Source of the DNA: an uncultured Candidatus Saccharibacteria bacterium
Lineage (GTDB): Bacteria > Patescibacteriota > Doudnabacteria > UBA920 > 2-01-FULL-46-14
Reading direction: 5' to 3'
NCBI GenBank assembly: GCA_964565195.1
Contig: CAZMCQ010000001.1
Span: 133,309-194,962 of the forward strand
DNA length: 61,654 bases
In this document: one piece after another, positions 4,717-59,237 of the stretch
How the letters are laid out: every line of letters starts with the position of its first letter
Position numbering within the stretch: position 1 is the first letter of the stretch
The notes under the pieces: generated by a model
What the model was told of the DNA's origin: nothing
Database searches by the model: none
Seen by the model: only the letters and a program-made list of their open reading frames with translations
Position numbers and translations under genes: made by a program

Positions 4717-5811
4717 ATGAACAACCAATACAACGCCATTCTAAAAGAATACGCAGACACCCAAAGCCAGCTCGCCAGTACACGTGATCCGGCGAAATTG
4801 AAGCTGCTTGGCAAAAAGCAGGCCGAGCTGGCGCCGAAAGTGGAAAAAATAAACGAGCTTCTGACTTTGGAAAAGCAACTGGCTGAAAATGAGAAGCTCC
4901 TCGCCACTGAAAAAGACGAGGAATTACTAAAAATTGCCAGGGAAGAATGCGAAACTTTAAATTCCAAATTCCATATTCTCGATTCCGAACTAAAGAATCT
5001 ATTGTTGCCCCGCGATCCCATGGATGAGCATGACACGATTATGGAAATCCGTTCTGGCGCCGGCGGCGACGAGGCCGGCCTGTTTGCGGCCGAGCTTTTT
5101 CGCGCCTACCAAAAATACGCGGAGGGCATGAGCTGGAAAACGGGCTTGATCTCCTCAAACCGCAGCGATGTCGGCGGCTTTAAAGAAATTATTTTTGAAG
5201 TCTCCTCTTCCCCTTCCTCTCCCCTCGCGGGAGAGGGCAGGGTGAGGGGGGTATACGGCAAATTGAAGTATGAATCCGGCGTGCACCGCGTGCAGCGCGT
5301 CCCGGAAACCGAAAAAGCCGGCCGCGTGCACACCTCCACTGTTACCGTGGCCGTGCTGCCGGAAGTGGAAGAAAAGGATGTTGAGATAAATCCAAAGGAT
5401 TTAAAGATCGAGGCATCCACTTCGCAAGGCGCGGGCGGGCAGTCAGTGAACACGACTTATTCGGCGATCAAAATCACGCATACCCCGACTGGCATCACGG
5501 CGCAGTCCCAGGATGAGCGCTCGCAGACCCAAAACCGCGAAAAAGCCCTGCAAGTGATCCGTGCGCGCGTTTACGAATACGAACAGCAAAAACGCCAGAA
5601 AGAACTGCGCGAAAAACGGCTCTCGCAGATTGGCACCGGCGACCGCTCGGAAAAGATCCGCACCTATAACTTCCCGCAGGACCGCGTCACTGACCACCGG
5701 ATCAATGAGTCCTGGAGCCAGATCAGCGCGATAATGGAAGGCAAACTGGAACCGATTATCAGCGCGCTCGCGGCGGAAGATAAAAAAAGAATTCTGGAGC
5801 AGGCAAAATGA
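4717..5811 (+). CDS. prfA: Peptide chain release factor 1 (with in-frame palindromic insertion)
   Basis: [35 protein letters not shown] (GGQ), [19 protein letters not shown]; followed by prmC. Confidence 0.97.
5205..5251. repeat. In-frame CCCCT...AGGGG palindromic element in prfA
   Basis: cccttcctctcccctcgcgggagagggcagggtgagggggg, read as [15 protein letters not shown]. Confidence 0.85.
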
Positions 5812-5883
5812 GATTGCTTCGCTGGCGCTCGCAAAGACTGTCATTGTGAGGACTCCGACCCAGGTCGGAGGACGAAGCAATCC
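5810..5883. repeat. REP-like palindrome (GATTGCTTC...GAAGCAATC family)
   Basis: gagattgcttcgct...gtcattgtgag...ccgacccaggtcgg...gacgaagcaatcc between prfA and prmC; related to 24148-24226. Confidence 0.75.
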
Positions 5884-5884
5884 C

Positions 5885-6850
5885 ATGACTATAAAAGAAG
5901 CTCTCAACTTGCCCAAAAACCTCGATCCTGAGGTTTTGTTGGCATTTGCACTAAAAAAGGACCAGTCCTTCCTTTTCGCCAATCCCGACAAAAATCTTCC
6001 TCCAATTCTTTATTCCAAATTCTTAATTCTTGTCCGGCGGCGAAGTCGCGGCTGGCCCGTCGCCTATCTCACCGGCCACAAAGAATTCTTCGGCCTGGAT
6101 TTCAGAGTCAGTCCCAATGTCTTGATCCCTCGCCCCGAAACCGAACTGCTCGTGGAGCTGGCCCTCGGACTTCTTTCACCCTCCCCTAACCCCTCCCCTC
6201 AAGGGAGGGGAAATAAAAAAAATAATTCCTCCCCCTTGAGGGGGGAGGCTAGGAGGGGGTGGAATGTAATCGACCTCGGCACTGGCTCCGGCAACATCAT
6301 CACCTCCCTCGCTGTCATTCTGGAGCGAAGCGATAGAATCCCGGATCTCAAATTCTTCGCCACCGACACTTCAACCGCGGCTCTCAAAGTCGCCAAAGCC
6401 AACGCCCGCCGCCACGGCGTCGCGAAAAAAATAAAATTTATTCAAGGCAACCTTCTCGCGCCTCTCACGTTGAACAATTCTATGGAATCGTTCCCAACGC
6501 TAATTATCGCCAATTTGCCATATCTGACCAAAAGCCAACTCCATGAGCCGTCCATCAGACACGAACCGAAATCAGCACTCTTTGGTGGCAAGGATGGTCT
6601 CAAATATTATCGCGAACTCTTCAAACAACTCACCCCCACCCAGCCTCCCCCCTCAAGGGGGAGGAAAAAAGAAAAAATTCCCCTCCCCTTGTGGGAGGGG
6701 CTGGGGGAGGGGTTTACCCTCCTTCTCGAACACGACCCCCGCCAAAAACCAAAATTAAAAGGCCTTGTGAAACTCTACCTCGCCGAAGCGAAAGTAAAAT
6801 TCCACAAGGACCTGTCTGGCCGCTTCCGCGTCGCGGAACTAAATTTTTGA
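5885..6850 (+). CDS. prmC: Release factor glutamine methyltransferase with several repeat-derived insertions
   Basis: PVAYLTGHKEFFGLDF, VLIPRPETELLV, IDLGTGSG, IIANLPY, EP..ALFGGKDGL..YR; adjacent to prfA. Confidence 0.95.
   Translation: MTIKEALNLPKNLDPEVLLAFALKKDQSFLFANPDKNLPPILYSKFLILVRRRSRGWPVAYLTGHKEFFGLDFRVSPNVLIPRPETELLVELALGLLSPSPNPSPQGRGNKKNNSSPLRGEARRGWNVIDLGTGSGNIITSLAVILERSDRIPDLKFFATDTSTAALKVAKANARRHGVAKKIKFIQGNLLAPLTLNNSMESFPTLIIANLPYLTKSQLHEPSIRHEPKSALFGGKDGLKYYRELFKQLTPTQPPPSRGRKKEKIPLPLWEGLGEGFTLLLEHDPRQKPKLKGLVKLYLAEAKVKFHKDLSGRFRVAELNF
6177..6262. repeat. In-frame double-hairpin CCCCT...AGGGG element in prmC
   Basis: ccctcccctaacccctcccctcaagggagggg-A-rich-tcctcccccttgaggggggaggctaggaggggg; peptide SPSPNPSPQGRGNKKNNSSPLRGEARRG. 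Confidence 0.85.
6632..6722. repeat. Second in-frame double-hairpin element in prmC
   Basis: cccccacccagcctcccccctcaagggggagg-A-rich-cccctccccttgtgggaggggctgggggagggg; peptide TPTQPPPSRGRKKEKIPLPLWEGLGEG. Confidence 0.85.
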
Positions 6851-6880
6851 CATTCCTGTCAATGCCTGCTAATGTAACTT

Positions 6881-7939: not shown

Positions 7940-7963
7940 ATAATGAAAAAATAAAAAATCAAA

Positions 7964-8338
7964 ATGGAAAATGACAAAGAAAAATTTAAAAATGAATTTA
8001 AGAAGAGATTATATAATTGGGTTCTTCGTTTAATTAAATTTATTGATAAATTACCAAAAGATAATGTCTGCAATGTTATTGGAAAACAATTATTGAGAAG
8101 TGGAACTAGCGTACTTGCTAATTACATCGAAGCTGGGGCGGCCAGTTCGAAGAAGGATTTTACTAATTTTTTTCACCATTCACTCAAATCGGCAAATGAA
8201 TCCAAAATGTGGTTAACTTTATTAAGAGATACGAACAAAGGCGATCCTAATGAATTGAAAGCATTACTAAACGAATTAGTGGAAATTGCAAACATTCTAG
8301 CTTCAAGTATTCTGACGCTTAAAGGAAAGAAATTTTGA
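7964..8338 (+). CDS. Four-helix-bundle protein (23S-IVP/TIGR02436-like), low GC
   Basis: IGKQLLRSGTSVLANYIEA..ASSKKDF...SLKSANESKMWL; flanked by AAAAT-type repeats on the left and ATTTT-type on the right. Confidence 0.9.
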   Translation: MENDKEKFKNEFKKRLYNWVLRLIKFIDKLPKDNVCNVIGKQLLRSGTSVLANYIEAGAASSKKDFTNFFHHSLKSANESKMWLTLLRDTNKGDPNELKALLNELVEIANILASSILTLKGKKF

Positions 8339-8389: not shown

Positions 8390-9385
8390 TTGCCCCGCAA
8401 AACTTCCATTCCTCGCGCGGAACTCCATACGCACCTCGGGTCCTCCGTGGACCCCGCGATCTTGTGGTCTATCGCGAGCCGGCAGGGCATCAAGCTGCCG
8501 ACGAAAAATTACTGGGACTTTGAGGATATGATCACCATGTCCGGCACGGAAAAAAACAAAAATGTTGATGAGATGCACGATAAATTTTTCTACTGGACCG
8601 AACTTATCCAGTCCTCGCCGGAAGCCATTCAGGAATCAGTCAAAAGCGTGATCGGCGGCGGCTACCGGAAGTGCAACATCGTCCTGCAGGAGCTGCGCTT
8701 CAACCCGATGTTTAGAAACCGCGGCGGCGAACGGGATCTGGACCATATCATTATGTCCGCCATCTGGGGCCTCGATCAGGCGATTCTGGAATATCCGCAG
8801 GTGAAAGGCGGGATTATTCTGATGGTGGAACGAACCCAATCGCTTGCTCAGGGGGAAATTATTTTCAACAAGGCGATTAAATACAAAAACCGCGGCATCG
8901 TCGGCGTGGACATCGCGGGGCCGCAGCGAAAAACGTTTTCCGTAAAAAACTACCGGCCGCTTTTTGAAAAGGCGCGAAGGGCCGGGCTGGGCATCACTGT
9001 CCACACCGGCGAGGAGGGAGATTTGGACGAAATGCGCTATATCGTGAGGCACATCAAACCCGAACGCATCGGCCACGGCGTCAAAGCGGCCAAAGACAAA
9101 TCGCTCATGGCCGATCTCGTAAAAAACAATATCATTCTGGAAATTTGTCCGACCTCCAATCTTCGGAACAGCGTCCTGAAAAATACCGGCGAGCTGAAAA
9201 ACGTGCTCCAGACTTTTCTCAAAAATAAAGTTAAATTCACCATCAACACCGACGGCCCGGAAATGTACCGCACCAACGTCCACAAAGAACAGGAGTTCCT
9301 GCGCAAAAACGGGATCCTGAATGCCAAACAGATCGCGCAGTGCAACCAGTGGGCGTTCGAAGCATCTTTTATAAAAAACGGCTAA
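8390..9385 (+). CDS. Adenosine/AMP deaminase family protein
   Basis: AELHTHL, GVDIAGP, TVHTGE, ERIGHG, EICPTSN, INTDGP amidohydrolase motifs; lies between guaB and guaA. Confidence 0.88.
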   Translation: MPRKTSIPRAELHTHLGSSVDPAILWSIASRQGIKLPTKNYWDFEDMITMSGTEKNKNVDEMHDKFFYWTELIQSSPEAIQESVKSVIGGGYRKCNIVLQELRFNPMFRNRGGERDLDHIIMSAIWGLDQAILEYPQVKGGIILMVERTQSLAQGEIIFNKAIKYKNRGIVGVDIAGPQRKTFSVKNYRPLFEKARRAGLGITVHTGEEGDLDEMRYIVRHIKPERIGHGVKAAKDKSLMADLVKNNIILEICPTSNLRNSVLKNTGELKNVLQTFLKNKVKFTINTDGPEMYRTNVHKEQEFLRKNGILNAKQIAQCNQWAFEASFIKNG

Positions 9386-9477
9386 TTTCTATTATATTTC
9401 GCGAAGCAAATTTCTATCAATTTCTTACGACAATAGAGATTAATTGAAACTCATAGAAATTAGATAGAAACTTTTTG
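9386..9477. repeat. AT-rich periodic palindrome (TTTCTAT.../...ATAGAAA family)
   Basis: tttctattatatttcgcgaagcaaatttctatcaatttc...gagattaattgaaactcatagaaattagatagaaac; same family as the two inserts in rsmA. Confidence 0.7.
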
Positions 9478-9484
9478 TAAGTTG

Positions 9485-39611: not shown

Positions 39612-40694
39612 TTATTGCAAATCCAGGCGGTAGAGATAGCCGCTGGCGCTGTCCGTGAAAAACAAGATCGGTTTTGTCGGGTGAAGAAATATCTCGGCCG
39701 GGCCAAGCAGCGAATCGGCCGGGAAAGTGTAGACCTCGCGCCATTCTTGCGTCAAAACATTGTAGGCGCGGATTTTTCCTGCAGCAAAAATATAAAGCTC
39801 GCGCGAATCACTGCTCCAGGCCACTCCCCCCACCTCGCCTCCCCCACTAAGGGGGGAGGAATTAGAAAGAGGGCTCCCCTCGCCAGGGGAGAGGGGGGAA
39901 AGGGACTGCAAATCATAAATGACCAACGCTCCCGCCTTCTCCGCGACCGCGAAATTGCCATCCGGCGAAAATTTGGCGCCCGAGTAGCGCACTTTCTCAT
40001 CGAGCAGCGTGTACCGGACCGTATCCAGATCAACAAGCAGCAGATTGTCGGGGTTTTGCGCATCATCGACAAACAGCAGCACCTGATTTTTCGCCGAGGA
40101 GACTACCAGCTCATAATCCGGCCCATACAAATCGGATAATTTTACATAATTGGCCGTATCCGGCGCCGCGACGCTAAGCTCGGCTCGGCCGCCCTCCCCT
40201 ACCCAAATATAAACGACCTGTTTATCGTCCGCCAAAAAAGCCGGATCGCGGATCCGCTCATCATAAATGGTAAAAACTTTCTTGTCAGCGCCATAAAATT
40301 GATAACGCGTATGTCCGTCCACTGACTGCTCCACGATAAAATCATTGCCCCGTTGCTGCCAGATGACACGGGCCGGATTCGTAATAGGCGCAGGCCCGCC
40401 TGCCGGCGAGGCAGGCAATAGATATTCTTCCTTAACTGCCCCCGCCTCAATGGCCTGCCGGTACAGCCGTCCTTCCCGGCTCATAAACCAGACCGTCTCG
40501 CCATTAAACGACAGCACCGGCGAGATCACAGTTTCCGCCACGAGGAGTTCGGGCTGGCGCGGGGCCGGCTCTTCCTGCACTACCGGCACTTCAGTTTTTG
40601 ACCCGGGTTGTTTGACAAGCAGATAATACGCGCCAACGCCCGTGCCGACAAACAGCAATACGACAATGATTAAGATAAATGTGCGGCGGTTCAT
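39612..40694 (-). CDS. Membrane-anchored beta-propeller (TolB-like) protein with palindromic insert
   Basis: N-terminal TM; FSPDG / WSSDSRE repeats; insert LSPGEGSPLSNSSPLSGGGEVGG at about 39825-39905. Confidence 0.7.
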   Translation of the reverse strand: MNRRTFILIIVVLLFVGTGVGAYYLLVKQPGSKTEVPVVQEEPAPRQPELLVAETVISPVLSFNGETVWFMSREGRLYRQAIEAGAVKEEYLLPASPAGGPAPITNPARVIWQQRGNDFIVEQSVDGHTRYQFYGADKKVFTIYDERIRDPAFLADDKQVVYIWVGEGGRAELSVAAPDTANYVKLSDLYGPDYELVVSSAKNQVLLFVDDAQNPDNLLLVDLDTVRYTLLDEKVRYSGAKFSPDGNFAVAEKAGALVIYDLQSLSPLSPGEGSPLSNSSPLSGGGEVGGVAWSSDSRELYIFAAGKIRAYNVLTQEWREVYTFPADSLLGPAEIFLHPTKPILFFTDSASGYLYRLDLQ

Positions 40695-41209: not shown

Positions 41210-41626
41210 CTAAACGGATTTCTCCAGTATTGAAGAGAAAATTTTCTTGAGCTCAATGGCCTCGTTCATTAAGGAATTTCCTTCCCTACTAAACGGTTCA
41301 TCGTTTGTTTCGACAATTAACCGAAGCCAATAAGCGGATTCTTTGGCTTCCTTGCGGCAGATTTTGATGCGCATTAGGAAATCTTTCTTACTTAAGGATT
41401 CATTTGCCTCGATGTAATTGGCACCACTAGAAGCGCTAGATCGAATACATTGCTTACCATATTCAAGATTGCTGGCATTCTTCGGCAATTGTTTACAATA
41501 TACTGCAACTGCTTTTGCAAACTCAAAAGTCCGCTCTTCCAAATCATAGGGTTTATTTAATTTTTCCCCATTTGGAATTTGAAGTTTATTTGTTATTTGT
41601 GTATTAAGATTTGGAATTTTATTCAT
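41210..41626 (-). CDS. Four-helix-bundle protein
   Basis: YDLEERTFEFAK, QCIRSSASSGANYIEANESLSKKDF, KEAKESAYWL; flanked by 7-nt AAT(T/C)CA repeats in inverted orientation. Confidence 0.9.
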   Translation of the reverse strand: MNKIPNLNTQITNKLQIPNGEKLNKPYDLEERTFEFAKAVAVYCKQLPKNASNLEYGKQCIRSSASSGANYIEANESLSKKDFLMRIKICRKEAKESAYWLRLIVETNDEPFSREGNSLMNEAIELKKIFSSILEKSV

Positions 41627-41627: not shown

Positions 41628-43442
41628 TTATCGCCCTTCTAGTTCTTCTTTGGCCCGCTGGATCTCCAGGCGCTGGCGCGGGTCAGTGGTGATGATCTGG
41701 TCTTCGGTATAAGAAGCGACCACCCGCACCGCGACGTGCTTTAAACCCGCAAAGAAGATCCCCTCGCCCACCTCGCTCTCCAACAGCAAATATTTCTCGC
41801 CTTCGGTGAGAAAAAATGTCTCGGCCACGATGTCCATCGCGGCCGGCGACTGCTTTAATAACAGCTGAATCGAGGAGTTGGTCACAATCGGTTTGCCATA
41901 AGCGCTCTGCAAAAAATCCTGCACGTCCTGGGTGATGGTGGTTACGCCGAGGTAGTATTTGCGCGACCGTTTGGCAATGCCGAAGAGAAACCGCGCCGAG
42001 TCCTCGTGCTGCATCATCCACCACGCCTCGTCAATGACCAGAATGCGTTTTTTCAAGGTGGAGCGCACCTCGTTCCAGATGAAACCGAGAATGACATAGA
42101 TGGCGATGGGCCGCAGGGTGTCCTCGAGATCGCGCACCGAAAACACCACGAGCTGGTTGTCAAGATTGATGTTGGTCGGCTGGTTGAAGATGCCGGAAAA
42201 CGTCCCTTCCGTGTATTTGGAGAGACGCTGCGCCAGACTCTCGCCGCCCTCGATGCCCGTGAGCACGTTGACGAGATCACTCATGGTCGGCACCTCGACA
42301 GTGGTAAAATCCGACTGCGGCGTGATGTCGCGCGTCGCGTAAGTCTCCCAGATGGCGCGATCCATAATCGCTTCCTCGGCGGGAGTGAGCTTGCCGAGCA
42401 TCAGGTTCATGAGCCCCAGAAGGTTGATCACGGTCGAACGCATCACGTCCTCCGGCGACTCGCCCTCCTGCGGCTTGATGAGGTCAAATGGATTGATGCG
42501 CGAGTTGGAATTCAAAGAGACGTTGAGGTAGGAGCCGCCAACCGCGTCCGAGAGATGTTTGTACTCATTCTCGGGGTCAATCACGATCACGTCCGTGCCG
42601 ATCATCAGAGAACGCAAAATCTCCAGCTTCACGGCATAGGATTTGCCGCTACCCGATTTGGCAAACACGACCGAATTGGCGTTTTCCATCTGGAAGCGGT
42701 CAAAGAGGATCAAGCTGTTGTTGTGCCGGTTGATGCCATAGAGAATGCCGTCCGAAGAGGTAAGCTCCGAGGAGACAAACGGAAAAGTCGTGGAGAGGGG
42801 TCCGGTGTTCATATTGCTGGAAACGGCGAGCTCGTCATTGCCCAGGGGCAGCGTGGAGTTGAACCCGGCCTCGCCCTGCAGCACCGCGGCTTTGGCGATC
42901 ACCAGTTTCGAGCCGAGCAGGGATTCCAGATTGGCCGTGATTTTGTCCAGGCCCTTCAGGTCATCCGCGTAGATCGTGAAATAGAGCGAGAAGCGGAAAT
43001 AGCGCTCGGTGCCCTGCTGGAGGCGATCACGCAACTCCTCCACGTCGTGGTAGGCCGTCTCGAGCATCGGGTCGCGGACAATGCCCTTCTCCTGATTCAT
43101 GGCAATTGTGGCCTCGAGCTGGCCGACTTTATTTTTGAGCTTTTTCATCACCACGTCCGTCTCCATCGGGTAGATGAACATCGAGATGTCCATCGCCACG
43201 TCCAGATTGACGATCGGCGCGAGCCAGTTGGTCGAAAGATACCGCGGATAGGTGAGCACAAAAAACGTCCGGGCGTATTTGCCGGAAACCTGCAGGTAGT
43301 TCGACTCGATCTGCATCGCGGTCGGCGCGATCAGATCGCGAAGGCTCGTCACCCCCTGCTGGTAGGCGCGCTCCGCCTCCAATAATTCGTGCGACAGGGA
43401 CTTCGGCGTAGCTGAAGAATTCTTTTTATTAAACAAACTCAT
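41628..43442 (-). CDS. VirB4/TraC-like conjugation-type ATPase
   Basis: NANSVVFAKSGSGKS Walker A, VIVIDPENEY, INPFD, LVIDEAW Walker B, KRSRKYYLG..TITQ. Confidence 0.9.
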   Translation of the reverse strand: MSLFNKKNSSATPKSLSHELLEAERAYQQGVTSLRDLIAPTAMQIESNYLQVSGKYARTFFVLTYPRYLSTNWLAPIVNLDVAMDISMFIYPMETDVVMKKLKNKVGQLEATIAMNQEKGIVRDPMLETAYHDVEELRDRLQQGTERYFRFSLYFTIYADDLKGLDKITANLESLLGSKLVIAKAAVLQGEAGFNSTLPLGNDELAVSSNMNTGPLSTTFPFVSSELTSSDGILYGINRHNNSLILFDRFQMENANSVVFAKSGSGKSYAVKLEILRSLMIGTDVIVIDPENEYKHLSDAVGGSYLNVSLNSNSRINPFDLIKPQEGESPEDVMRSTVINLLGLMNLMLGKLTPAEEAIMDRAIWETYATRDITPQSDFTTVEVPTMSDLVNVLTGIEGGESLAQRLSKYTEGTFSGIFNQPTNINLDNQLVVFSVRDLEDTLRPIAIYVILGFIWNEVRSTLKKRILVIDEAWWMMQHEDSARFLFGIAKRSRKYYLGVTTITQDVQDFLQSAYGKPIVTNSSIQLLLKQSPAAMDIVAETFFLTEGEKYLLLESEVGEGIFFAGLKHVAVRVVASYTEDQIITTDPRQRLEIQRAKEELEGR

Positions 43443-43443
43443 A

Positions 43444-43545
43444 TTAATAAATCAAAATGTAAATATCAAAAATCAAAATTACAGATTAAAATTTTAAAAT
43501 TTTTAATTGTCATTTTCCATTTTGATTTTTAATTTTTTATTTATC
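43444..43545. repeat. AT-rich periodic palindrome, empty version of the flanks of 44274-44648
   Basis: atcaaaatgtaaatatcaaaaatcaaaattaca is shared with about 44234-44263; right arm ttttccattttgatttttaatttt is shared with 44641-44664. Confidence 0.8.
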
Positions 43546-44273: not shown

Positions 44274-44648
44274 CTAAAGTTTTTTATTCTTCAGAGTTAG
44301 TATACTTGAAGCCAATATATTTGCTAATTCTATCAGTTCATCTAATAACTCTTTTAATTCATCCTGGCTGCCTTTTTTCGTATCCCTCAATAGCGTAAGC
44401 CACATTTTCGATTCGTTTGCAGATTTCAGAGAGTGGGTAAAAAAGTTGATAAAGTCTTTCTTGGAACTAGCGGAATTGGCTTCGATATAATTGGCGAGGA
44501 TACTGGTTCCGCTTCTTAACAATTGTTTACCAATAATTTCACAAATAGAATCCTTCGGCAACCGGTCAATGAAACTGATGAGCTTAAGAACCCAGTTGTA
44601 TAATCTTTTCTTAAATTCATTTTTAAATTTTTCTTTGTCATTTTCCAT
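44274..44648 (-). CDS. Four-helix-bundle protein, paralog of 7964-8338
   Basis: Same length (124 aa) and 22 differences by manual alignment (about 82% identity). Confidence 0.92.
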   Translation of the reverse strand: MENDKEKFKNEFKKRLYNWVLKLISFIDRLPKDSICEIIGKQLLRSGTSILANYIEANSASSKKDFINFFTHSLKSANESKMWLTLLRDTKKGSQDELKELLDELIELANILASSILTLKNKKL

Positions 44649-44663: not shown

Positions 44664-45125
44664 TTAAATTTCATTGAGCCATTGTTTGTTGATGTCGCCG
44701 CTCGAAACAAGCCGCTCCTCCTCGGCTGCTTTCTGATCCAGAAGATAGGCGAGCTTCCGGAGACGCGACTGCCGCTCTTCAGTGATCGGTTCGGGAGCGA
44801 GCTTGGCAAGCGCTGTTTCTTTTTTCACGATCGGGGTCGGGCTGGCGCCGCGCACAAACACCCGGTAGCGCGGGGTGACGAAAAACTTGGCGAACGCGGG
44901 CAGATTGGCGGTGATGGGTTTGCCGTTGAATTGGCCAAAAGCCAAAAACGCAAACAGCCCGGCGGTCGGCAGGGTGAAGACAAAAAACAGCAGCCCCACG
45001 CCCAAAATGGACCAGAACATAAACGCGAGCAGTCCGCCGCCAAGCAGCACCAGAAACTGCTTGAGCGTGAGCGGCCCGATGATCCGGTCCGGAACGTCAA
45101 CGAATTGAGGAACACTATACTGCAT
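44664..45125 (-). CDS. PrgI/VirB3-like membrane protein
   Basis: MQYSVPQFVDVPDRIIGPLTLKQF, two TM helices; upstream of the VirB4-like gene. Confidence 0.88.
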   Translation of the reverse strand: MQYSVPQFVDVPDRIIGPLTLKQFLVLLGGGLLAFMFWSILGVGLLFFVFTLPTAGLFAFLAFGQFNGKPITANLPAFAKFFVTPRYRVFVRGASPTPIVKKETALAKLAPEPITEERQSRLRKLAYLLDQKAAEEERLVSSGDINKQWLNEI

Positions 45126-45199: not shown

Positions 45200-45284
45200 C
45201 TAATTATTCTAATTAACCTAAAAACCCAATTGGGAATTGGGATTTGTTTAGAATAATTAGAGCAATTAGGTCAATTAGAAATTA
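45200..45284. repeat. CTAATT/AATTAG periodic palindrome, empty
   Basis: taattattctaattaacctaa...ttagaataattag..caattaggtcaattagaaatt; same arms as those flanking 45857-46012. Confidence 0.75.
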
Positions 45285-45818
45285 ACTCAAGGTTTTCCTC
45301 AAACTTGCTCTGAAATCTGCCAATGCTTCGAACTCCGCGTGGTTTAGTATCTCGGACTCCCCCCCGCCCATGAGCTTCAGGCCCGCGGAGACGTAAGCGC
45401 GATGCAAGGGGCTCTGTTCAAAGGCCTGCCGCACCGTCTCGCCTGACGCGCGGCGGCTGGCCACCATATCTTTCATTTTTTTGCCAAGTTCTTCCAAAAA
45501 CAGATACACGGACGGCGCTTTGCGCATGGCTTCAATATTTATCTGCTTTAAGGATTCCACATCAGTGGGCAGCGCGGGCGCGGGTTTGATGTCGGCTTTG
45601 GGCAGAAGAGACGGGTGGACAACCCCCACTCTTTCTCCCCCTTTGTAAGGGGGAGATGAAGAGGGGGGCGGCATTCTAACAGATAACAATTTTGTGAGCT
45701 CATCTACCTGTATCGCGGTCATCTTGGGCAGTAGGAAAAGCCACTCCGACTTTTCCTGGGAGGATAATATGCTTGATTGCTGAATTTTCTGCTTGAGAGA
45801 GTCTGAATCTGGAGCCAT
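45282..45818 (-). CDS. Hypothetical protein with palindromic insert
   Basis: SQEKSEWLFLLPKMT..QVDEL N-terminus; insert PPPSSSPPYKGGERVG at about 45622-45670. Confidence 0.6.
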   Translation of the reverse strand: MAPDSDSLKQKIQQSSILSSQEKSEWLFLLPKMTAIQVDELTKLLSVRMPPPSSSPPYKGGERVGVVHPSLLPKADIKPAPALPTDVESLKQINIEAMRKAPSVYLFLEELGKKMKDMVASRRASGETVRQAFEQSPLHRAYVSAGLKLMGGGESEILNHAEFEALADFRASLRKTLS

Positions 45819-46060: not shown

Positions 46061-47350
46061 TTAATTTTTCTTGACCTTATCCTCCAGTCTCTTCAGCTTC
46101 TCCTCGATGTCTCTGTCTCCCGCGACAATCTCGCCGTGGTCGCCGTCCGAAACTTTCCCCCGCACGATCGCCTCGTTCACCGAGAACGGTTTGTACTCAA
46201 TATTTTCCTCTCCCCTCGCGGGAGAGGTCGGCCCTACCGGGCCGGGTGAGGGGGCTGATCTTGCGACCGGCTTCGCAGTTTCTCCCCTCATCTTCTGCAG
46301 CTCGGCCAGCGTTTCTTTGAGCACCTCCTCGTCAATTACTGGTTTTTCTTTCACCCTCCCCCCACCCCTCCCATCAAGGGAGGGAAATTTTTTCATTCCC
46401 TCCCCCTGGTGGGGAGGGCGAGGGAGGGGGGTAACAGAAGGGGTTATCTTTGGTTCTTCGGTCTTTACCACCGGCATAACCGGAGCTTTTGGTATCGCCA
46501 CAGGCGCCGCCTCACGACGCCTAGGCGCTGGAGGTAAGGGCAAATTTGTCCTCACCACTGGGATGCCTGAACCGCCAAATCTTAACCAATCATAAAGCTC
46601 GAGAACTCGAAGCAGAAATTTTTTATTTTCTTCACTAAGTGCCCGGACATTAAGACTCTTGGTCATATAGGAAATTCTCTCGACGGCTCCCGAATGAAAT
46701 TCCGAACCCGCCACGGAGCGCGAAGCCTGAAGATATTCGCGAAGATAATTCCCAACAGTCGCTGGCAGAGGACGATCTGCCCCGGAAAACAAGATATAAT
46801 TTTTCCCGAGTCTGTATTGCGACGTCGCGATCGCATTGGCAAAAGCCCAAGCAATTTTTCCTTCTAAAAGAATATCGTTATTATCGTCTAAAACTAGCTG
46901 AATTTTCGCCCGAACGTTTATTTTATGCTGCATTGCGAAATATAAATTTTCCTGAACAAGCTTTTCGGCCTCCTGCAGCGGCACCGTATTTAGGGCTACG
47001 AATTTGAGCAAAATCAAAAGTTCCTGATAATGATTATAAATATCAGGGGCAGTCTGGCGCAGGGTTGGGTATAATGGCAAAAGCGTTCCTTGCAAGAGCG
47101 TAATCGCTTTGACTGCTTCTTCACGGTTATCTTGCCGAATAATTTCATCCACAATTTTAGAAAACTCTTCCACAACTTTTGGCTCTGTAAGCTGGCCGGC
47201 ATCGGTAATAAATGGTGTATCCGTGACAGCTAAAGGATGATTTGGATCAGGTAGTTCGCTTGCCAAAAGATCGAATACTTCCGCTGCGGGAGGCGCGGGA
47301 GTAAAAGAATTGTATATTTTTTTTACCTTGTCGAGAAATTCATTCACCAT
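46061..47350 (-). CDS. Hypothetical protein with Pro-rich C-terminus and two palindromic inserts
   Basis: 429-aa ORF in the operon; inserts at about 46205-46257 and 46354-46443. Confidence 0.65.
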   Translation of the reverse strand: MVNEFLDKVKKIYNSFTPAPPAAEVFDLLASELPDPNHPLAVTDTPFITDAGQLTEPKVVEEFSKIVDEIIRQDNREEAVKAITLLQGTLLPLYPTLRQTAPDIYNHYQELLILLKFVALNTVPLQEAEKLVQENLYFAMQHKINVRAKIQLVLDDNNDILLEGKIAWAFANAIATSQYRLGKNYILFSGADRPLPATVGNYLREYLQASRSVAGSEFHSGAVERISYMTKSLNVRALSEENKKFLLRVLELYDWLRFGGSGIPVVRTNLPLPPAPRRREAAPVAIPKAPVMPVVKTEEPKITPSVTPLPRPPHQGEGMKKFPSLDGRGGGRVKEKPVIDEEVLKETLAELQKMRGETAKPVARSAPSPGPVGPTSPARGEENIEYKPFSVNEAIVRGKVSDGDHGEIVAGDRDIEEKLKRLEDKVKKN

Positions 47351-50732: not shown

Positions 50733-51122
50733 TTAAGATTCGTTGTTCTTGGATTTATAAGTGGCGGAGATAAAATTGTTCAGCTTAATGGAAAGTTTTA
50801 TTCCATTTTCTTTGAGAGCCGAGTATCGCTGCTCGTCGATTTTGTTTCGTTCTTTCAATAACTCCAACCAATGATCAACGCCTTCAGCAAGCGAGGCCCG
50901 AGCGTTGTAATAAAATTTAATTTTATCAAGATAATGAAACCTGCCATAGCCCTCTGCAATGTTTGCGCCCACCGAATCAATGGCTGAAATAAATTGATCT
51001 CCCATTACTTTCTTGGTCTGCCAATCTAAGAGAATGTATATTTCCCATCCTGTTTTTGATAGCTCTCTGGCGAGCTTGTAAACTTCCAAATCTTCGAGTA
51101 ATATGTATTTCTTTTTTTCCAT
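50733..51122 (-). CDS. Four-helix-bundle protein
   Basis: LEDLEVYKLA, DQFISAIDSVGANIAEGYGR, F...ARASL.E; flanked by inverted GAAA/TTTC periodic arrays (about 50641-50722 and 51115-51225). Confidence 0.92.
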   Translation of the reverse strand: MEKKKYILLEDLEVYKLARELSKTGWEIYILLDWQTKKVMGDQFISAIDSVGANIAEGYGRFHYLDKIKFYYNARASLAEGVDHWLELLKERNKIDEQRYSALKENGIKLSIKLNNFISATYKSKNNES

Positions 51123-54840: not shown

Positions 54841-55917
54841 TCACTTCTTGTCAAACCTGGTTTGGAACAACCTGTTATACAGTCTCCCCCAATCCTCCAG
54901 CGAGAGATCTTGCGCGCGGCAGAGGGGGTTCAAACCAATCGAAAAAAGTACTTGTTTATAATTTCCATGAGTTTCTATGTATTTCAATTTATTTCTTGTG
55001 TCATCACGAAATTCATAGAAATCAGCTTCGCGAAACTTATGGAAATTTATTGTATTTAAAACGCTCAAATTATTCTGCAGCTGCTTTCGCTTATTACTAA
55101 ATCCAATCTTAACGAGTTGAAAAAACTGTTTCTCATCAATCACCCCCACCTCACCTCCCCCCTCAAGGGGGAGGAATTCTTTTTTATTTCCCTCCCCTCG
55201 ATGGGGAGGGTTAGGGAGGGGTGCAATCTTTACTATCGCAGAATCCACTTCGGGTTTCGGATAAAAATTTTCTTTAGAAACAAAACTAATAATTTCGGGG
55301 TCTGCATAAAATTGCACACTCACCGCGAGAAGCGACATCTGACCGGGGCCTGCGATTATTCTCTGGGCAACTTCTTTCTGAAGAAGCAGCACCATCAGGG
55401 AGGGGCGCAACCCCTCCTGGCCTCCGGCCATCCTCCCCTCGTCAGGAGAGGATAAAAAGGTAGATAACAATTTGCCGGTGAGGTAGTAAGGAATGTTAGC
55501 CACCACTTTGTAATCCCGCGACAACAAATTTCTATCAGTTTCTATAAGTTGCAATTTATTTCTCGCGTCTCTTGGAAATTTGTGGAAATCTGCTTCGCGA
55601 AATTCATTGAAATTGATTGTAAGAATATCTCCACGAATTATCTTCACATTCTTTTTTGATTTAAAAAGTTTGTACAGGACGCGAATTAATTTGCGATCTT
55701 TTTCAATGGCCACAACCTGCCCCGCCTGTTCTGCCAGACGTTTCGTTAAAATTCCCAGGCCCGGCCCGATCTCCAATACCACGTCGTCTTTTTTTAATTC
55801 CGCGGCCGCGACAATCTCCTCCAAAACTTTCTCGGACAGCAAGAAGTTCTGACCCAAACGCTTGTCGGGTTTGATGTGCAATCTTAATAAAAGAGATTTT
55901 AGTTCATCGGGCCGCAT
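54841..55917 (-). CDS. rsmA: 16S rRNA m6,2A dimethyltransferase with four repeat-derived inserts
   Basis: KRLGQNFL, VLEIGPGLG.LT, VVAIEKD, VVANIPYYLT, LLQKEVAQRI, FYPKPEVDSA, FSNKRKQL, RAQDLS. Confidence 0.95.
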   Translation of the reverse strand: MRPDELKSLLLRLHIKPDKRLGQNFLLSEKVLEEIVAAAELKKDDVVLEIGPGLGILTKRLAEQAGQVVAIEKDRKLIRVLYKLFKSKKNVKIIRGDILTINFNEFREADFHKFPRDARNKLQLIETDRNLLSRDYKVVANIPYYLTGKLLSTFLSSPDEGRMAGGQEGLRPSLMVLLLQKEVAQRIIAGPGQMSLLAVSVQFYADPEIISFVSKENFYPKPEVDSAIVKIAPLPNPPHRGEGNKKEFLPLEGGGEVGVIDEKQFFQLVKIGFSNKRKQLQNNLSVLNTINFHKFREADFYEFRDDTRNKLKYIETHGNYKQVLFSIGLNPLCRAQDLSLEDWGRLYNRLFQTRFDKK

Positions 55918-56023
55918 AAATCAAAAATTAAATATCAAAATGTAAAATGACAGATTAAAATTTCAAAATTTTAAGATTTTTCTTTGTCATTTTTATTTTA
56001 GATTTTTACATTTTAATTTTTTA
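55917..56023. repeat. AT-rich periodic palindrome, empty
   Basis: tcaaaaattaaatatcaaaatgtaaaatgaca...tgtcatttttattttagatttttacattttaatttt. Confidence 0.75.
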
Positions 56024-57050
56024 AGAGCTCAACCCTTACAGAGATAGTACCGGAAGACAAATTTGATAATGCTTTATACGCCACGCTATCCAAATCGATC
56101 ACTCTGTCCGGATGTTTGTCGAGTTCCGGGCCGCGGTCATTGATTTGCACGATCACGCTCTGGCCGTTTTGCAAATTGGTCACCCGCGCGTAGCGCCCTT
56201 TGTCATAGAAAGGATGGGCCGCGCAGAGGCAGCCGCGATAAGCATACCAGGAGGCAACGCCTTCTGTAGTCTCTTCGATCTCAATTTTTGTCCCAAACTC
56301 CCGCGTTTCGGTCACCGGCGTCGACAAAATAGTCTCCCTCACAAACTTCCGCTTTATCTCCACCCCGTTTTTGTAGGTAATCAGGAATTCCGTCTCCTGC
56401 TGCCCGGGCTTTCCGGGTGTGAGAATTTTTTCCTGACCATAAGGCAAAAACGGATTGTCGTATCTGGTAATGGCAAACGGGATGTCCGTCCGTTCTCTGA
56501 CCGGCAGGGTCACGATGCGGTCAATTTTGACGACCATCCCATCGGTCAGGAAAACCCCCTCTCTTTCTCCCCCTTGATAAGGGGAATATGAAGAGGGGGT
56601 AGAAATGAACGCGCTAACTTTATCCGTACTGGACAACTTAATTCCTTTTTCATAGAGCAGGTCGTTCACGGTCGCGGCTGAAGAAATATAGGATTTTTCA
56701 ACGCCGGCGTCATTGACTATTGTCTCAACTGGCCGCGAAATTTCAACGGTCATTCCCGCTATCACCCCCTCACCTAACCTCTCCCACCAGGGGAGAGGAA
56801 AAGAAGATGAATTCCCCTCCCTCGATGGGAGGGGCGAGGGGAGGGTGAATCCCTGTTCCCCCAGCACTTCCCCCACTGTCCCGGCTCGCGTCTCAACCAT
56901 GAAAGTCAGATTGCGGCTCTGAATCTTTACGACCTTGAGCGGCGGTTCGCGGCGGCGCAACGCCAAATGCAAAATTAAAAATGCAAAAATCAAAATGACA
57001 ATCCAAAATCCAAAATTTTTAATTTTCAATTGTAATTTTGAATTTTGCAC
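56013..57050 (-). CDS. DUF348/G5/RlpA-like DPBB cell-wall protein with two palindromic inserts
   Basis: TRAGTVGEVL, ATVNDLL..KGI.L...D, GKPG..E..F.ITY.NG.E (G5), GVASWY, AAHP, VTNLQNG.SVIV.INDRGP, RVIDL; start uncertain (GTG inside a repeat). Confidence 0.8.
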   Translation of the reverse strand: MQNSKLQLKIKNFGFWIVILIFAFLILHLALRRREPPLKVVKIQSRNLTFMVETRAGTVGEVLGEQGFTLPSPLPSREGNSSSFPLPWWERLGEGVIAGMTVEISRPVETIVNDAGVEKSYISSAATVNDLLYEKGIKLSSTDKVSAFISTPSSYSPYQGGEREGVFLTDGMVVKIDRIVTLPVRERTDIPFAITRYDNPFLPYGQEKILTPGKPGQQETEFLITYKNGVEIKRKFVRETILSTPVTETREFGTKIEIEETTEGVASWYAYRGCLCAAHPFYDKGRYARVTNLQNGQSVIVQINDRGPELDKHPDRVIDLDSVAYKALSNLSSGTISVRVELLKN

Positions 57051-57066
57051 TTTGCATTTTCAATTT
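56963..57066. repeat. AT-rich periodic palindrome at the pcrA/G5-gene junction
   Basis: caaatgcaaaattaaaaatgcaaaaatcaaaatgacaat...attgtaattttgaattttgcactttgcattttc. Confidence 0.75.
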
Positions 57067-59237
57067 AGCTTGCGCAGCAAGCGCTTCGGGATGGCCTTCA
57101 ATATCCTAGACGGTATCGCTCTTTTATATTCCCCGTACACCTGCCGCTGGCGCGCGTAGGACAAATAAAGATTTTGCTTGGCCCGCGTGATGCCGACATA
57201 AGCCAGACGAATCTCCTCGGCCACCTCTTCCGGCGAATTGAGGCTCCGCGAATGCGGCAGGAGCCCCTCCTCCAGCCCGACAAAAAAGACTTTTTCAAAC
57301 TCCAGGCCCTTGGCCGAGTGCAGGGTCATCAGCGTAAGTTTGTTGCCACCCTCCTCCGCAGTATCCAGGTCGGTCATCAGCGCCACTTCCTCCAAAAACT
57401 GCGGCAGGCCCCCGCGCCAGGGCAGATGTTTATATTTCGCCGCCACATCCACGAGCTGTTCGATATTTTCCAGGCGAGCAAGCCCTTCCTCACCTTCTTT
57501 CAGAAGTTCCTGCCGATAGCCAGACCGCGAGAGCATGAAGTCGATAATATCAAGAAGATTCACCCCCTCCCTGCCTCCCCCATCAAAGGGGGAGGAATTC
57601 TCTCTTTTGCTTCCCCTCCCTTGATGGGAGGGGTTAGGGGAGGGTGAAACGGGCAAGCTTAGCAATTCAAAAAATTCTCTCGCGCCGGCCACTGCCCGCG
57701 GACTTAATTCCAGCTTATCAATATTATTGAGCAGCCGCTCATGATTAAAATCGAATTTGGCCAGGCCCTGGTTGATCAATTTCAAATTCGCGTTGCCAAT
57801 CCCCCGCGCCGGCACATTGATCACGCGCGCGAGACTGACCAGGTCGCGCGGGTTGGCCACAAGCCGCAGGTAAGCTAAAACGTCCTTCACTTCACGGCGC
57901 TCATAGAACTTGATGCCGCCGACGATCTGATACGGGACGGACGCGGACAGCAGTGCTTCCTCAAATGGGCGCGATTGCGCGTGGGTGCGATAGAGGATGA
58001 CGATCTCGGAGAGATTGTCAGGAATAGAGAATGAAGAATATGGAATATGGAATCTTGAAGGGCGGGTCCATTTTGCGTTCATAAATTTGTTTAAAATCGG
58101 GGTTTCCTCCGGTTCATAAACAATTTCTTTCTCTTCTTTCCCCCCTCCCTTCCCCTCCCCACCAGTGGAAGGGGATAAAGGGGAGGGGGCGGCATTCATA
58201 ATTCTTTCAAGCACAAATTCCGCTTCATCATACTCGTCCGCCGCCTCGTACAAGCTCACTTTCTCCCCGCCTTTGGAATCTGTCCAGAGCTTTTTTTCAT
58301 ACTGCCGCGGATTCAGGGCAATCACCTTGTGCGCCGCATCCAGGATCGCCTGGGTGGAGCGGTAGTTCTGCTCCAGCATAATCACGCGGGCGCGCGGATA
58401 GTCTTTTTTGAAGTTCAGAATGTTCTGCATATTGGCCCCGCGAAATCCGTAGATGCTCTGCGCGTCGTCGCCAACAACAAACAGGTTCCGGTGGGCGGCA
58501 GTGAGCAGCTTCAAAAGTACATACTGCGCGTGGTTTGTATCCTGGTATTCGTCCACGAGAATGTAGCGAAAGCGTTTCTGAAGTTTCTCGAGAATTTTCC
58601 GGTGCCCCTGCAGAAGCTCGCAGGTCAATTTGAGCAAATCGTCAAAATCCAGGGCGTTGTTCTCGCGCAGCCGCTCGATATAAAGTTCCTCGACCTGTGC
58701 CAGGGTTTCCTGAAAATAGGAATTGTCCAGAGCGAGATCACGCGTCCGCAAAAGTTTATTTTTCGCTGCGCTGATATAATAGCCAAATATCTGTGGCCGG
58801 AAATTTTCCGATACCCCGAGCTCGAGCGTGATCTGCTTCAGAAGCCGCTGCTGGTCGTCAGTATCATAGATCACAAACGAGCGCGTATAGCCGCGATTTA
58901 ATTGTTCAATAAATTCCCGCAGCCACCGCGCGCAGACGGCGTGGAACGTGCCGGCAGTGAGCCGGCCGATATCCCCAATTCCCCGTATCCCCCCAATTCT
59001 CCCCCGCATCTCTCCGGCGGCTTTATTGGTAAAGGTCAAGGCGAGGATCTCTTCCGGCCGAAAGTGGGGTTTTTGTCTCCCTTCGGGAGATCCCCCGGAG
59101 GGGGATAACAGATACGCGATGCGGTAGGTTAAAACGCGCGTCTTGCCGCTGCCGGCCCCGGCGAGAACGAGGACTGGTCCGGGCGGCGCCGTGACGGCTT
59201 CTCGTTGGCGATCATTAAGATTTTTCAGAATGTCCAT
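57060..59237 (-). CDS. pcrA: UvrD/PcrA helicase with several repeat-derived inserts
   Basis: LNDRQREAV, VLAGAGSGKTRVL, LTFTNKAA.EM, LDFDDLL, LVDEYQDTN, VGDDAQSIYGFRGA, LEQNYRS, LMTLHSAKGLEF, RLAYVGITRA; ATG 59237. Confidence 0.96.
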   Translation of the reverse strand: MDILKNLNDRQREAVTAPPGPVLVLAGAGSGKTRVLTYRIAYLLSPSGGSPEGRQKPHFRPEEILALTFTNKAAGEMRGRIGGIRGIGDIGRLTAGTFHAVCARWLREFIEQLNRGYTRSFVIYDTDDQQRLLKQITLELGVSENFRPQIFGYYISAAKNKLLRTRDLALDNSYFQETLAQVEELYIERLRENNALDFDDLLKLTCELLQGHRKILEKLQKRFRYILVDEYQDTNHAQYVLLKLLTAAHRNLFVVGDDAQSIYGFRGANMQNILNFKKDYPRARVIMLEQNYRSTQAILDAAHKVIALNPRQYEKKLWTDSKGGEKVSLYEAADEYDEAEFVLERIMNAAPSPLSPSTGGEGKGGGKEEKEIVYEPEETPILNKFMNAKWTRPSRFHIPYSSFSIPDNLSEIVILYRTHAQSRPFEEALLSASVPYQIVGGIKFYERREVKDVLAYLRLVANPRDLVSLARVINVPARGIGNANLKLINQGLAKFDFNHERLLNNIDKLELSPRAVAGAREFFELLSLPVSPSPNPSHQGRGSKRENSSPFDGGGREGVNLLDIIDFMLSRSGYRQELLKEGEEGLARLENIEQLVDVAAKYKHLPWRGGLPQFLEEVALMTDLDTAEEGGNKLTLMTLHSAKGLEFEKVFFVGLEEGLLPHSRSLNSPEEVAEEIRLAYVGITRAKQNLYLSYARQRQVYGEYKRAIPSRILKAIPKRLLRKLN

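Follow-up and report, generated by a model that had tools for sequence, protein, structure and literature searches.

A GC-rich palindromic repeat, probably of REP type, lies in frame in housekeeping genes of a Doudnabacteria-type bacterium

The DNA analyzed here is a 61,654-nt stretch (61.7 kb; hereafter the window) of contig CAZMCQ010000001.1 in GenBank assembly GCA_964565195.1, with about 52% G+C, a coding density of 92%, about 56 genes and five tRNAs. Its gene set, which includes prfA, prmC, guaB, guaA, dnaE, thrS, gatCAB, recG, rsmA, pcrA and type-IV-secretion-like genes, fits a candidate-phylum (Patescibacteria) bacterium, and the closest relatives in public data carry the name Candidatus Doudnabacteria. 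Locus L056 (isolate nzgw378) is syntenic with the window, its proteins being 65-71% identical, and homologues of PcrA and GuaA with 55-84% identity come from Doudnabacteria or from bins without a name. Set within this gene content are 19 GC-rich palindromic elements that keep the reading frames of their hosts. They lie in 11 of the approximately 56 genes, mostly housekeeping, and make up 1322 nt, or 2.1% of the window. An earlier note on this DNA had proposed about 18 copies in 11 genes, in short and double-hairpin forms, which the count of 19 bears out. Pfam supports the names prfA, prmC, guaA, thrS, recG, rsmA and the G5 gene, and matches in the Protein Data Bank (PDB) support pcrA. A Pfam scan of open reading frames (ORFs) 39612-40694, 45282-45818 and 46061-47350 returned zero matches, and the label of beta-propeller gene once attached to the first of these was not confirmed.

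Copies were detected by inverted- and direct-repeat scans and by an nhmmer profile made from eight long copies. They comprise eight long double hairpins (89-93 nt), one diverged doublet, four short symmetric forms (52-57 nt), three half-elements (49-57 nt), one degenerate copy and two mini elements of 30 nt, each with two adjacent 6-bp hairpins; the last correspond to the shorter palindromes that the earlier note had seen near 37045-37065 and 59075-59105. The profile recovered all eight long copies at E values of 1e-21 to 1e-24, with that in rsmA best, and the other forms mostly at 1e-8 to about 0.05, on either strand. A loose CCCCT..AGGGG pattern gave 10 matches in the window against 1.6 expected. 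One weak nhmmer match, at 11047-11093, proved on inspection to contain no element. The elements are as follows, with minimum free energy (MFE) of the predicted RNA where given.

5206-5254, + strand: single half-element in prfA, encoding 15 residues; nhmmer E 0.002-0.007 (weak)
6174-6264, + strand: long double hairpin 1 in prmC, encoding LSPSPNPSPQGRGNKKNNSSPLRGEARRGWN; E 1e-23; MFE -59.3 kcal/mol
6628-6716, + strand: long double hairpin 2 in prmC, encoding QLTPTQPPPSRGRKKEKIPLPLWEGLGEGFT; E 8e-22; MFE -52.4 kcal/mol
10257-10348, + strand: long double hairpin in guaA, encoding FTPPPNLPHQGGGKTKKPFPPLEGEGKGGVK; E 3e-23
23884-23940, + strand: single half-element in thrS, encoding SSLTSSPLTGEGRVRV; E 2e-5
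37037-37066, + strand: mini element in recG, 30 nt, with adjacent 6-bp hairpins TCTCCCTACGGGAGA and TCCCCCGTAGGGGGA, encoding SPYGRSPVGG
37737-37791, + strand: short symmetric form in recG, outer arms and one hairpin, encoding FPPHLSSPTSGEEVKEGVI; E 5.5e-6
38142-38234, + strand: long double hairpin in recG, encoding ESPHLTSPTRGEEKNNNEFPPLDGEGKGGVK; E 4e-23
39822-39908, - strand: doublet with diverged second half in ORF 39612-40694, encoding QSLSPLSPGEGSPLSNSSPLSGGGEVGGV; E 1.3e-8 (long model) and 2e-7 (pan-bacterial half model)
45617-45671, - strand: short symmetric form in ORF 45282-45818, encoding PPPSSSPPYKGGERVGVV; MFE -36.2 kcal/mol
46198-46253, - strand: single half-element in ORF 46061-47350, aligning with the prfA and thrS copies apart from a nested hairpin
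46349-46437, - strand: long double hairpin in ORF 46061-47350, encoding SVTPLPRPPHQGEGMKKFPSLDGRGGGRVK; E 8e-21; MFE -57.1 kcal/mol
55138-55226, - strand: long double hairpin in rsmA, encoding IAPLPNPPHRGEGNKKEFLPLEGGGEVGVI; E 1e-24, the best match
55399-55466, - strand: degenerate copy with two small hairpins in rsmA, encoding LSTFLSSPDEGRMAGGQEGLRPS; E 0.3 (weak); hairpin GGAGGGG-CGCAA-CCCCTCC
56549-56600, - strand: short symmetric form in the G5/DPBB gene, encoding TPSSYSPYQGGEREGVF; MFE -30.0 kcal/mol
56760-56850, - strand: long double hairpin in the G5/DPBB gene, encoding GFTLPSPLPSREGNSSSFPLPWWERLGEGVI; E 6e-23
57558-57649, - strand: long double hairpin in pcrA, encoding VSPSPNPSHQGRGSKRENSSPFDGGGREGVN; E 1e-21
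58134-58190, - strand: short symmetric form in pcrA, encoding APSPLSPSTGGEGKGGGKE
59077-59106, - strand: mini element in pcrA, 30 nt, two adjacent hairpins, encoding SPSGGSPEGR

The two mini elements have identical architecture, and 45617-45671 and 56549-56599 are direct repeats that are 88% identical. The prfA half-element, of a pan-bacterial subfamily, consists of the hairpin CCTCTCCCC-TCGC-GGGAGAGG followed by GGGTGAGGGG. The rsmA copy at 55399-55466 is the least certain member. An unrelated GC hairpin, CGGCCC-TACC-GGGCCG, is nested at 46229-46244 in the copy at 46198-46253, and the pyrD copy of locus L090 (about 4890-4925) has a nested hairpin CGCTTCG...CGAAGCG; such nesting within copies is a mark of repeated insertion.

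The basic unit of the family is about 35 nt and consists of a C-rich arm, a 3-nt spacer and a hairpin of 8-9 bp with only pyrimidines in its 5' arm (CCTCCCCC type) and only purines in its 3' arm (GGGGGAGG type). It occurs singly, as stem-hairpin-stem, or as an inverted doublet with an A-rich linker, and the consensus of the long form is TCACCCCCACC-TAA-CCTCCCCC-ATCAA-GGGGGAGG-(A-rich linker)-CCCTCCCC-TTGA-GGGGAGGG-TAA-GGGAGGGGTGA. As the earlier note had claimed, every copy keeps the frame and different frames are used: all 19 are free of stop codons in the host frame, and all three frames of the same element DNA are read among the genes, giving peptides such as SPSPNPSPQGRG, TPPPNLPHQGGG and ESPHLTSPTRGEE. 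Because the same DNA yields unrelated peptides in three frames, the relatedness lies in the DNA and not in the peptides. C-rich arms encode Pro, Ser, Thr and Leu, G-rich arms Gly, Arg and Glu, and the linker Lys, Asn and Glu; the element-encoded loops span 10-31 residues, and a peptide across an element junction would read, for example, ...YLLSPSGGSPEGRQKP... On the sense strand, an A-rich linker characterizes seven of the eight long window copies, 56760-56850 alone having a T-rich one, and also the related copies examined, so that the linker encodes Lys, Asn and Glu instead of Phe and Leu. This bias fits selection on the translated product. Most long copies are open in the host frame alone; spacers, loops and linkers supply stops in both of the other sense frames. 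The idea that openness in all six frames would license the elements to land anywhere was rejected, as the copies average 3.5 open frames of six and background coding sequence 3.1-4.1.

These properties bear on whether the elements reach the protein at all. Removal before protein completion, as introns or inteins or through translational bypassing, would make frame preservation incidental. Hairpins of great stability within essential genes would suit such a process, and organelles provide precedent, the byp elements of yeast mitochondria being bypassed in translation. If frame were unconstrained, however, about one-third of lengths should be divisible by three, whereas every copy is in frame and stop-free and most long copies are closed in the other two sense frames. 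The strand bias of the linker likewise favors selection on a translated product, and the peptides have neither intein-like residues nor intein-like length. Catalytic motifs were not found, and no Rfam intron family matched above threshold; at gathering thresholds, Rfam detected tRNAs alone in the window and nothing over the motif in 18 loci of other phyla. We regard removal as very improbable. Membership in a known RNA family was also rejected, permissive Rfam thresholds yielding merely sub-threshold look-alikes of microRNA hairpins.

Comparison with solved homologues places the element stretches in alignment gaps in seven proteins: PcrA, GuaA, RsmA, PrmC, RecG, RF1 and ThrRS. The prfA half-element corresponds to a 12-residue gap versus Thermus thermophilus RF1, the guaA element to a 27-residue gap versus Coxiella burnetii GMP synthase (3tqi), and the thrS half-element to a net gap of 6 residues versus threonyl-tRNA synthetase structures (best match PDB 8wij). 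In prmC, element 1 lies between two aligned blocks of T. maritima HemK (1sg9; query 111-140 versus chain 118-124), and the alignment with HemK stops at residue 261, where element 2 starts. The recG mini element matches a 5-residue gap versus T. maritima RecG (1gm5), and the long recG element falls between residues 595 and 596 of that structure as a clean gap of 23 residues. In rsmA, 55138-55226 and 55399-55466 give gaps of 18 and 11 residues, respectively, versus Bacillus subtilis KsgA (6ifs). The long pcrA element is a gap versus PcrA 1pjr, its site being empty in 47 of 52 homologues. Among the same 52, the window protein alone has the short pcrA insert sequence, and it alone has the mini element, an exact 10-codon insertion whose junctions show no flanking direct repeat. 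An AlphaFold2 model of PcrA from the 52-sequence alignment has a confident helicase fold (predicted template modeling score, pTM, 0.72), in which residues 49-53 (mini), 350-379 (short) and 530-555 (long) are coil with a predicted local distance difference test score (pLDDT) below 50. The three PcrA inserts thus map to low-confidence coil on a confident model.

The nearest relatives show clean empty sites. At the guaA site, locus L223 (76% nt identity) has exactly 84 nt (28 codons) fewer than the window, and the junctions show neither direct repeats nor a target duplication; the GuaA relatives nearest the window (84% identity over aligned columns) have no insert. Both G5 elements of the window are absent from the syntenic orthologue in L221, versus which the short one (56549-56600) is a clean 15-residue gap, and L221 has an element of its own near the N-terminus. 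The ortholog alignments that the earlier note had called for therefore give exact empty sites (L223 guaA and the pcrA mini element) and no duplication, and by these comparisons the elements are true insertions.

The view that nothing was inserted, and that ancestral low-complexity Pro/Gly linkers converged on palindromic DNA in place, can point to loops of similar length in distant homologues at recG 37737-37791 (net +2) and thrS (net +6). It is contradicted by the clean empty sites in the nearest relatives. Moreover, copies in unrelated genes share 70-87% DNA identity in different frames, and the same sequence lies outside genes in many phyla. We consider such convergence extremely improbable. 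An origin in misassembly or misbinning has nothing for it except that repeats are in general hard to assemble from metagenomes. Against it, RecG with its three elements is present as an identical copy on a different, 8-kb contig of an independent assembly (GCA_016198105.1), metagenome-assembled genomes from separate studies (L056, L065, L090 and L222) carry related elements at the same gene sites, and reading frames are intact throughout. The chance that the elements are artifacts, which the earlier note had named as grounds for abandoning its proposal, is to our minds next to nil.

Occupancy of individual sites varies among relatives. The window GuaA site holds Pro/Gly-rich inserts of varied length, frame and form in 15 of 51 homologues, and a second GuaA site, empty in the window, is filled in 11 of the 51. 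At the guaA site, L056 has the element and the more closely related L223 does not, and L056 guaB has a short element where window guaB has none. Relatives such as L120 and L121 are free of elements. At the long PcrA site, carriers fall into two separate clades of a tree built by neighbor joining only, a method too weak to separate repeated gain, loss and recombination; the long forms of the window and L222 differ by internal frame shifts, and L221, sister to the window, has a single hairpin. In the loop of the short PcrA element, other lineages hold different palindromic inserts, some from unrelated repeat families. This patchy occupancy by differing variants implies that gain and loss are ongoing in the Doudnabacteria clade. 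The patchiness could stem from seamless loss, from repeated insertion at a permissive or preferred site, or from allele exchange by homologous recombination, sources that are inseparable here. The earlier note's concern that inserts might be ancestral and common to distant orthologs is not borne out: some insertions do recur in relatives whose proteins are 65-70% identical (guaA in L056), but occupancy is patchy. In PcrA and GuaA homologues P0042, P0017, P0150 and P0136, the hot-spot loops contain other repeat-like peptides (SLRGGLKDDEAISS...IASSARGGLAMT, RFFGLRPQNDN and VIARSEATKQSRGHEIAA), which suggests that further palindromic DNA families may also insert in frame in this clade.

The family extends well beyond candidate phyla. 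Two patterns of 24-25 specified bases were scanned. The left-half pattern (24 specified bases) matched, in bacterial contigs representing one genome per species, at least 119 stretches across many bacterial phyla, the hosts among the matches listed including Geobacter, Devosia, Hyphomonas, Rhodocyclales, Gallionellales, Brocadia and other Planctomycetota, Omnitrophota, Nitrospinota, Chloroflexota and Doudnabacteria. Positions that the pattern left free are conserved in the listed matches: T at position 8 in 114 of 123 and C before the motif in 120 of 123, with a spacer of T-purine-purine and a loop closed by T...A. We estimate that fewer than one match would be expected by chance, and because the free positions are conserved, the matches are homologous and not fortuitous. 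A second subfamily, represented by prfA, thrS and ORF 46061, has the form CCTCTCCC-loop-GGGAGAGG-NNN-GGGTGAGGG; it is equally widespread (at least 120 loci) and often lies just after a stop codon. The half-element is thus found in many bacterial phyla, mostly extragenic there, and the family is not lineage-specific.

Among the matches listed from other phyla, the unit stands alone or pairs with an inverted partner 70-110 nt away, its position being for the most part at an ORF end, and in lower-GC genomes long ORFs clearly span the Doudnabacteria loci only. Like those of the window, the copies in L056, L065 and L090 are contained in ORFs. By the nhmmer profile, none of the 19 window copies is intergenic. 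The earlier note's statement that none lies between genes accordingly holds for the window as a count; under uniform placement at 92% coding density its p value is 0.21, which is not significant alone. An 841-residue ORF in L066 (uncultured alphaproteobacterium MGBC103325; 1156-3681), the N-terminus of which we take to resemble peptidase U32, contains three single half-elements in frame (SPSPVLPPQGGGTL, FHPLLTSPLKGEGVA and SPSPNLPLQGGGTLGE) and is flanked by further copies. Candidate phyla are therefore not alone in having intragenic copies. In some Desulfobacterota and Aquificales (L017, L031 and L084), a second conserved hairpin (CCCTGYAGCAAGCTRCAGGG AAT TAT) lies just 3' of the half-element, and in Brocadia and other Planctomycetota (L001, L028, L073, L088, L095 and L102) the half-element is followed by TTTGAAATTCCTAAACATTAAATTAGG; these followers may be parts of composite elements or conserved neighbors.

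Half-elements also occur, as doublets, in 20 IMG/VR viral contigs (L201, L210, L220 and others), most with about 67% G+C. These copies are a possible horizontal route or may reside in prophage regions of repeat-rich hosts. Phages as the vector were rejected, the copies being ordinary doublets in GC-rich, probably alphaproteobacterial contigs, and an apparent 4190-nt periodicity in three viral contigs proved not to be a repeat of the whole unit. BLAST against plasmids, limited by its low-complexity filter, returned three weak Azospirillum matches without annotation. Full-text searching of the literature brought up neither a description of these elements from candidate-phylum bacteria nor the motif in a paper on bacteria, which is not proof of novelty.

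Structure is conserved at the level of the predicted RNA. RNAalifold analysis of 12 long copies (8 from the window and 4 from L056, L065 and L090) gave an outer stem, with arms TCACCCC...GGGGTGA paired, and two inner 8-bp hairpins. Three positions per inner hairpin show compensatory C-G to U-A double changes, with one broken cell in the 12 copies; these counts come from paralogous copies and may partly reflect subfamilies. The MFE of the long form is -51 to -59 kcal/mol, versus -21.7 +/- 7.8 (minimum -44.5) for 300 windows of the same length taken from the rest of the sequence. The sequence itself is conserved as well. Orthologous elements exceed their host genes in nt identity, with 87% versus 65% for guaA (window versus L056) and 91% versus 73% for carA (L065 versus L090), and amino-acid identity is similar within and outside these elements. 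Paralogous copies in different genes average 68% nt identity, with a maximum of 87%. Because paralogues are as alike as orthologues, conservation is a property of the family and no proof of vertical descent at a site.

The main rival to a selfish repeat draws on these data. It holds that the hairpins are kept for a host nucleic-acid function, whether ribosome pausing at domain boundaries for co-translational folding, tuning of mRNA decay, or a role at the DNA level, the elements possibly being mobile DNA by origin that now serve as functional gene parts. In agreement with such a function, nt identity of orthologous copies is 18-22 points above that of the host gene and amino-acid identity is not; both inner hairpins are held perfectly paired by compensatory changes; the MFE is lower than in every one of the 300 background windows; several copies sit at domain junctions of GuaA, PrmC and RecG; and the motif is conserved across phyla. 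Occupancy, however, is patchy in close relatives, and individual copies are dispensable, since neither the closest relatives in GuaA nor the G5 orthologue of L221 have them. Form and length vary widely, unrelated palindromic families occupy the same loops in other lineages, and in other phyla the family acts as an extragenic repeat. The similarity of paralogous to orthologous copies also makes conservation family-wide and not site-specific. On balance, we find a host function unlikely.

We instead favor, at a probability of roughly 0.78, the reading that the elements are a non-autonomous selfish palindromic repeat resembling repetitive extragenic palindromes (REPs) and their paired form, REPINs, tolerated when translated, and a GC-rich analogue of Rickettsia palindromic elements (RPEs). 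It is favored because the hairpin unit is short, occurs as singlets and inverted doublets, is non-autonomous, shows no target duplication and is normally extragenic. In most bacteria the family sits at gene ends, and in the Doudnabacteria-type lineage copies have entered coding sequence. A filter on persistence there would require of each copy a net length divisible by three, a host frame without stops and a hydrophilic linker, at a site that encodes a surface loop or domain linker. The finding that most long forms are open in the host frame alone shows this putative filter at work. Elements would be transcribed and translated with the gene, presumably as a disordered, hydrophilic Pro/Gly loop. 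Movement would depend on an enzyme that acts in trans and has its gene elsewhere in the genome, most likely a single-strand, hairpin-recognizing HUH/Y1 transposase of the RAYT (REP-associated tyrosine transposase) or IS200 kind. Insertion and excision by such enzymes are seamless, and elements could thereby move in and out of essential genes. Copies may also be lost when a hairpin promotes an in-frame deletion, or when homologous recombination exchanges alleles.

Several observations weigh against REP-type mobility. Neither a transposase nor an HUH enzyme nor a nuclease turned up when all sizeable ORFs of the window were scanned with Pfam, in line with the absence of a mobilizing enzyme reported earlier, and translations judged by eye revealed no evident RAYT-like ORF beside copies in eight loci of other phyla. 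The consensus of the 123 copies among the matches listed lacks a GTAG or CGTC tag at either end. REPs are normally lineage-specific and co-diverge with their host, and conservation of a sequence of about 35 nt across phyla is unusual for them. A purely neutral selfish insert would not exceed its gene in nt conservation between orthologues, as these elements do, unless its sequence were constrained or copies were homogenized. There are no near-identical copies, the best paralogue pair being the 87% noted above, and the sequences give no sign of recent transposition. Finally, the recG element at 37737-37791 replaces a 1gm5 loop of nearly equal length, for a net gain of 2 residues. The earlier proposal of an in-frame, translated palindromic family that parallels RPEs at very high density was nonetheless supported by all tests run, each of them computational.

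RPEs, which are AT-rich, are in behavior the closest known analogue; we infer analogy and not membership. PMC10969869, citing Ogata et al. 2000, describes RPEs as translated, in-frame palindromic insertions in Rickettsia housekeeping genes. Both kinds of element are palindromic, lie in frame in unrelated housekeeping genes, add peptides compatible with the fold and have no associated transposase. RPEs, however, are 100-150 bp and specific to Rickettsia, whereas the present elements are 30-93 nt and GC-rich and belong to a cross-phylum family, different variants of which re-use the same loops among related lineages. No sequence relationship is evident, the two being set apart by length, composition and host, without an alignment to an RPE consensus. 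The present elements are far denser, with 19 copies in 61.7 kb versus the 44 RPE-1 insertions that the same source gives for the whole R. conorii genome (PMC10969869).

The family shares with REPs and REPINs short imperfect palindromes that are single or in inverted doublets with a spacer, a retained hairpin and non-autonomy (PMC3116915, PMC3733652), as well as an extragenic position near gene 3' ends in most hosts and the lack of a target duplication. The half-element of about 35 nt falls within the REP range of 20-40 nt, and the window has 8 doublets. REPs are mobilized by RAYTs, Y1 HUH transposases whose cognate gene is single-copy and as a rule has its REPs on either side. Most copies in other phyla are extragenic, as is typical of REPs, and those in the window, L056, L065 and L090 are not; intragenic REPs have been reported in several species (PMC3733652). 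In described REP superfamilies, a conserved tetranucleotide, GTAG or CGTC, marks one end (PMC3733652), whereas the present family differs in having no tag, no identified RAYT, sequence conservation across phyla and, in the window lineage, only intragenic copies among those seen. Miniature inverted-repeat transposable elements, or MITEs, are similarly small and non-autonomous with terminal inverted symmetry (here the outer arms TCACCCC...GGGGTGA) and occasionally form in-frame fusions with host ORFs (PMC10969869). Our elements are far shorter than most MITEs and lack a target-site duplication at two clean junctions (guaA and the pcrA mini element). No parent insertion sequence (IS) with matching ends was found among the matches listed, in a search that was not exhaustive, and no convincing IS-like inverted pairs 0.7-3 kb apart were seen in them (119 loci of up to 8 kb each). 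GC clusters, double-hairpin elements and coding palindromes of mitochondria are also GC-rich hairpins spread in frame into genes of compact genomes (PMC6649704, PMC7813641), but they are organellar and unrelated in sequence, and some are bypassed by the ribosome instead of translated.

A more ambitious proposal, which is tentative and in our view possible though doubtful, is that a cross-phylum superfamily whose usual place is immediately behind genes now rides in frame, as a matter of routine, in essential genes of a candidate-phylum clade, with seamless traffic at a few hot-spot loops through a hairpin-recognizing enzyme. If so, streamlined genomes would accommodate mRNA hairpins of about -55 kcal/mol, together with variability in the surface loops of core enzymes, and might even turn both to use, and conservation of the approximately 35-nt unit would reflect a widely shared, undescribed machinery for mobilization or binding. 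Under the favored reading itself, the elements would be among the clearest bacterial cases outside Rickettsia of selfish DNA inside working proteins, and in very small, strongly streamlined genomes. The features of note are their density, with about one in five window genes holding at least one insert, the repeated occupation of identical loops within a clade, and the tie to a cross-phylum family. Unless it has been described before, conservation of the unit between phyla is a sign of common recognition machinery or of a wide-ranging horizontal vector. The inserts also provide a natural map of permissive loops that accept 10-31 residues in RF1, GuaA, RecG, PcrA, KsgA, ThrRS and other core enzymes, and presence or absence at fixed sites among related metagenome genomes makes REP-type movement and seamless excision testable. 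For annotation, Pro/Gly-rich segments should be expected in candidate-phylum proteins, and extragenic equivalents should not be called as small ORFs.

Other repeats occur in the window. A second, unrelated family consists of AT-rich palindromes of about 100 nt, built of AAAATNN-like heptamers, in intergenic gaps.

29108-29208: AT-rich heptamer palindrome, intergenic
43442-43542: AT-rich heptamer palindrome, intergenic
55918-56018: AT-rich heptamer palindrome, intergenic
56965-57065: AT-rich heptamer palindrome, intergenic
59238-59353: AT-rich heptamer palindrome, intergenic

Four small genes belong to PF05635 ('23S rRNA intervening sequence protein'; four-helix-bundle, Avd-like).

7964-8338, + strand: PF05635 gene
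41210-41626, - strand: PF05635 gene
44274-44648, - strand: PF05635 gene
50733-51122, - strand: PF05635 gene

At least three of these lie between split arms of AT-rich heptamer palindromes (7932-7987/8332-8383, 44229-44282/44619-44670 and 50648-50703/51112-51200). Syntenic L056 has no PF05635 gene between guaB and the adenosine deaminase gene, and the cassette therefore looks like a mobile insertion. A third repeat, an AT-rich palindrome of about 95 nt (TTTCCATGAGTTTC...GAAACTTATGGAAA type), is found in rsmA at 54960-55054 and 55527-55621 and between genes at 9382-9473. The rsmA pair is in frame and 78% identical, and both copies are gaps versus KsgA 6ifs; rsmA (358 residues) thus has four palindromic inserts of two unrelated families. 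A VirB4/TraG-like ATPase gene (41628-43442) and a PrgI-family gene (44664-45125), both type-IV-secretion-like, adjoin the element-bearing ORFs 45282-45818 and 46061-47350. A 36-nt direct repeat (AAACTGGCGAGCGCT.TCGGACA..) occurs three times at a spacing of about 1.6 kb (12977-13012, 14593-14628 and 16190-16225), and a 27-nt repeat twice (14513-14539 and 16105-16131). Both lie flank-side to ORFs 13126-14391 (a weak DndB-like match), 14651-16027 and 16229-16615, and they may be shared regulatory sequences or cassette boundaries.

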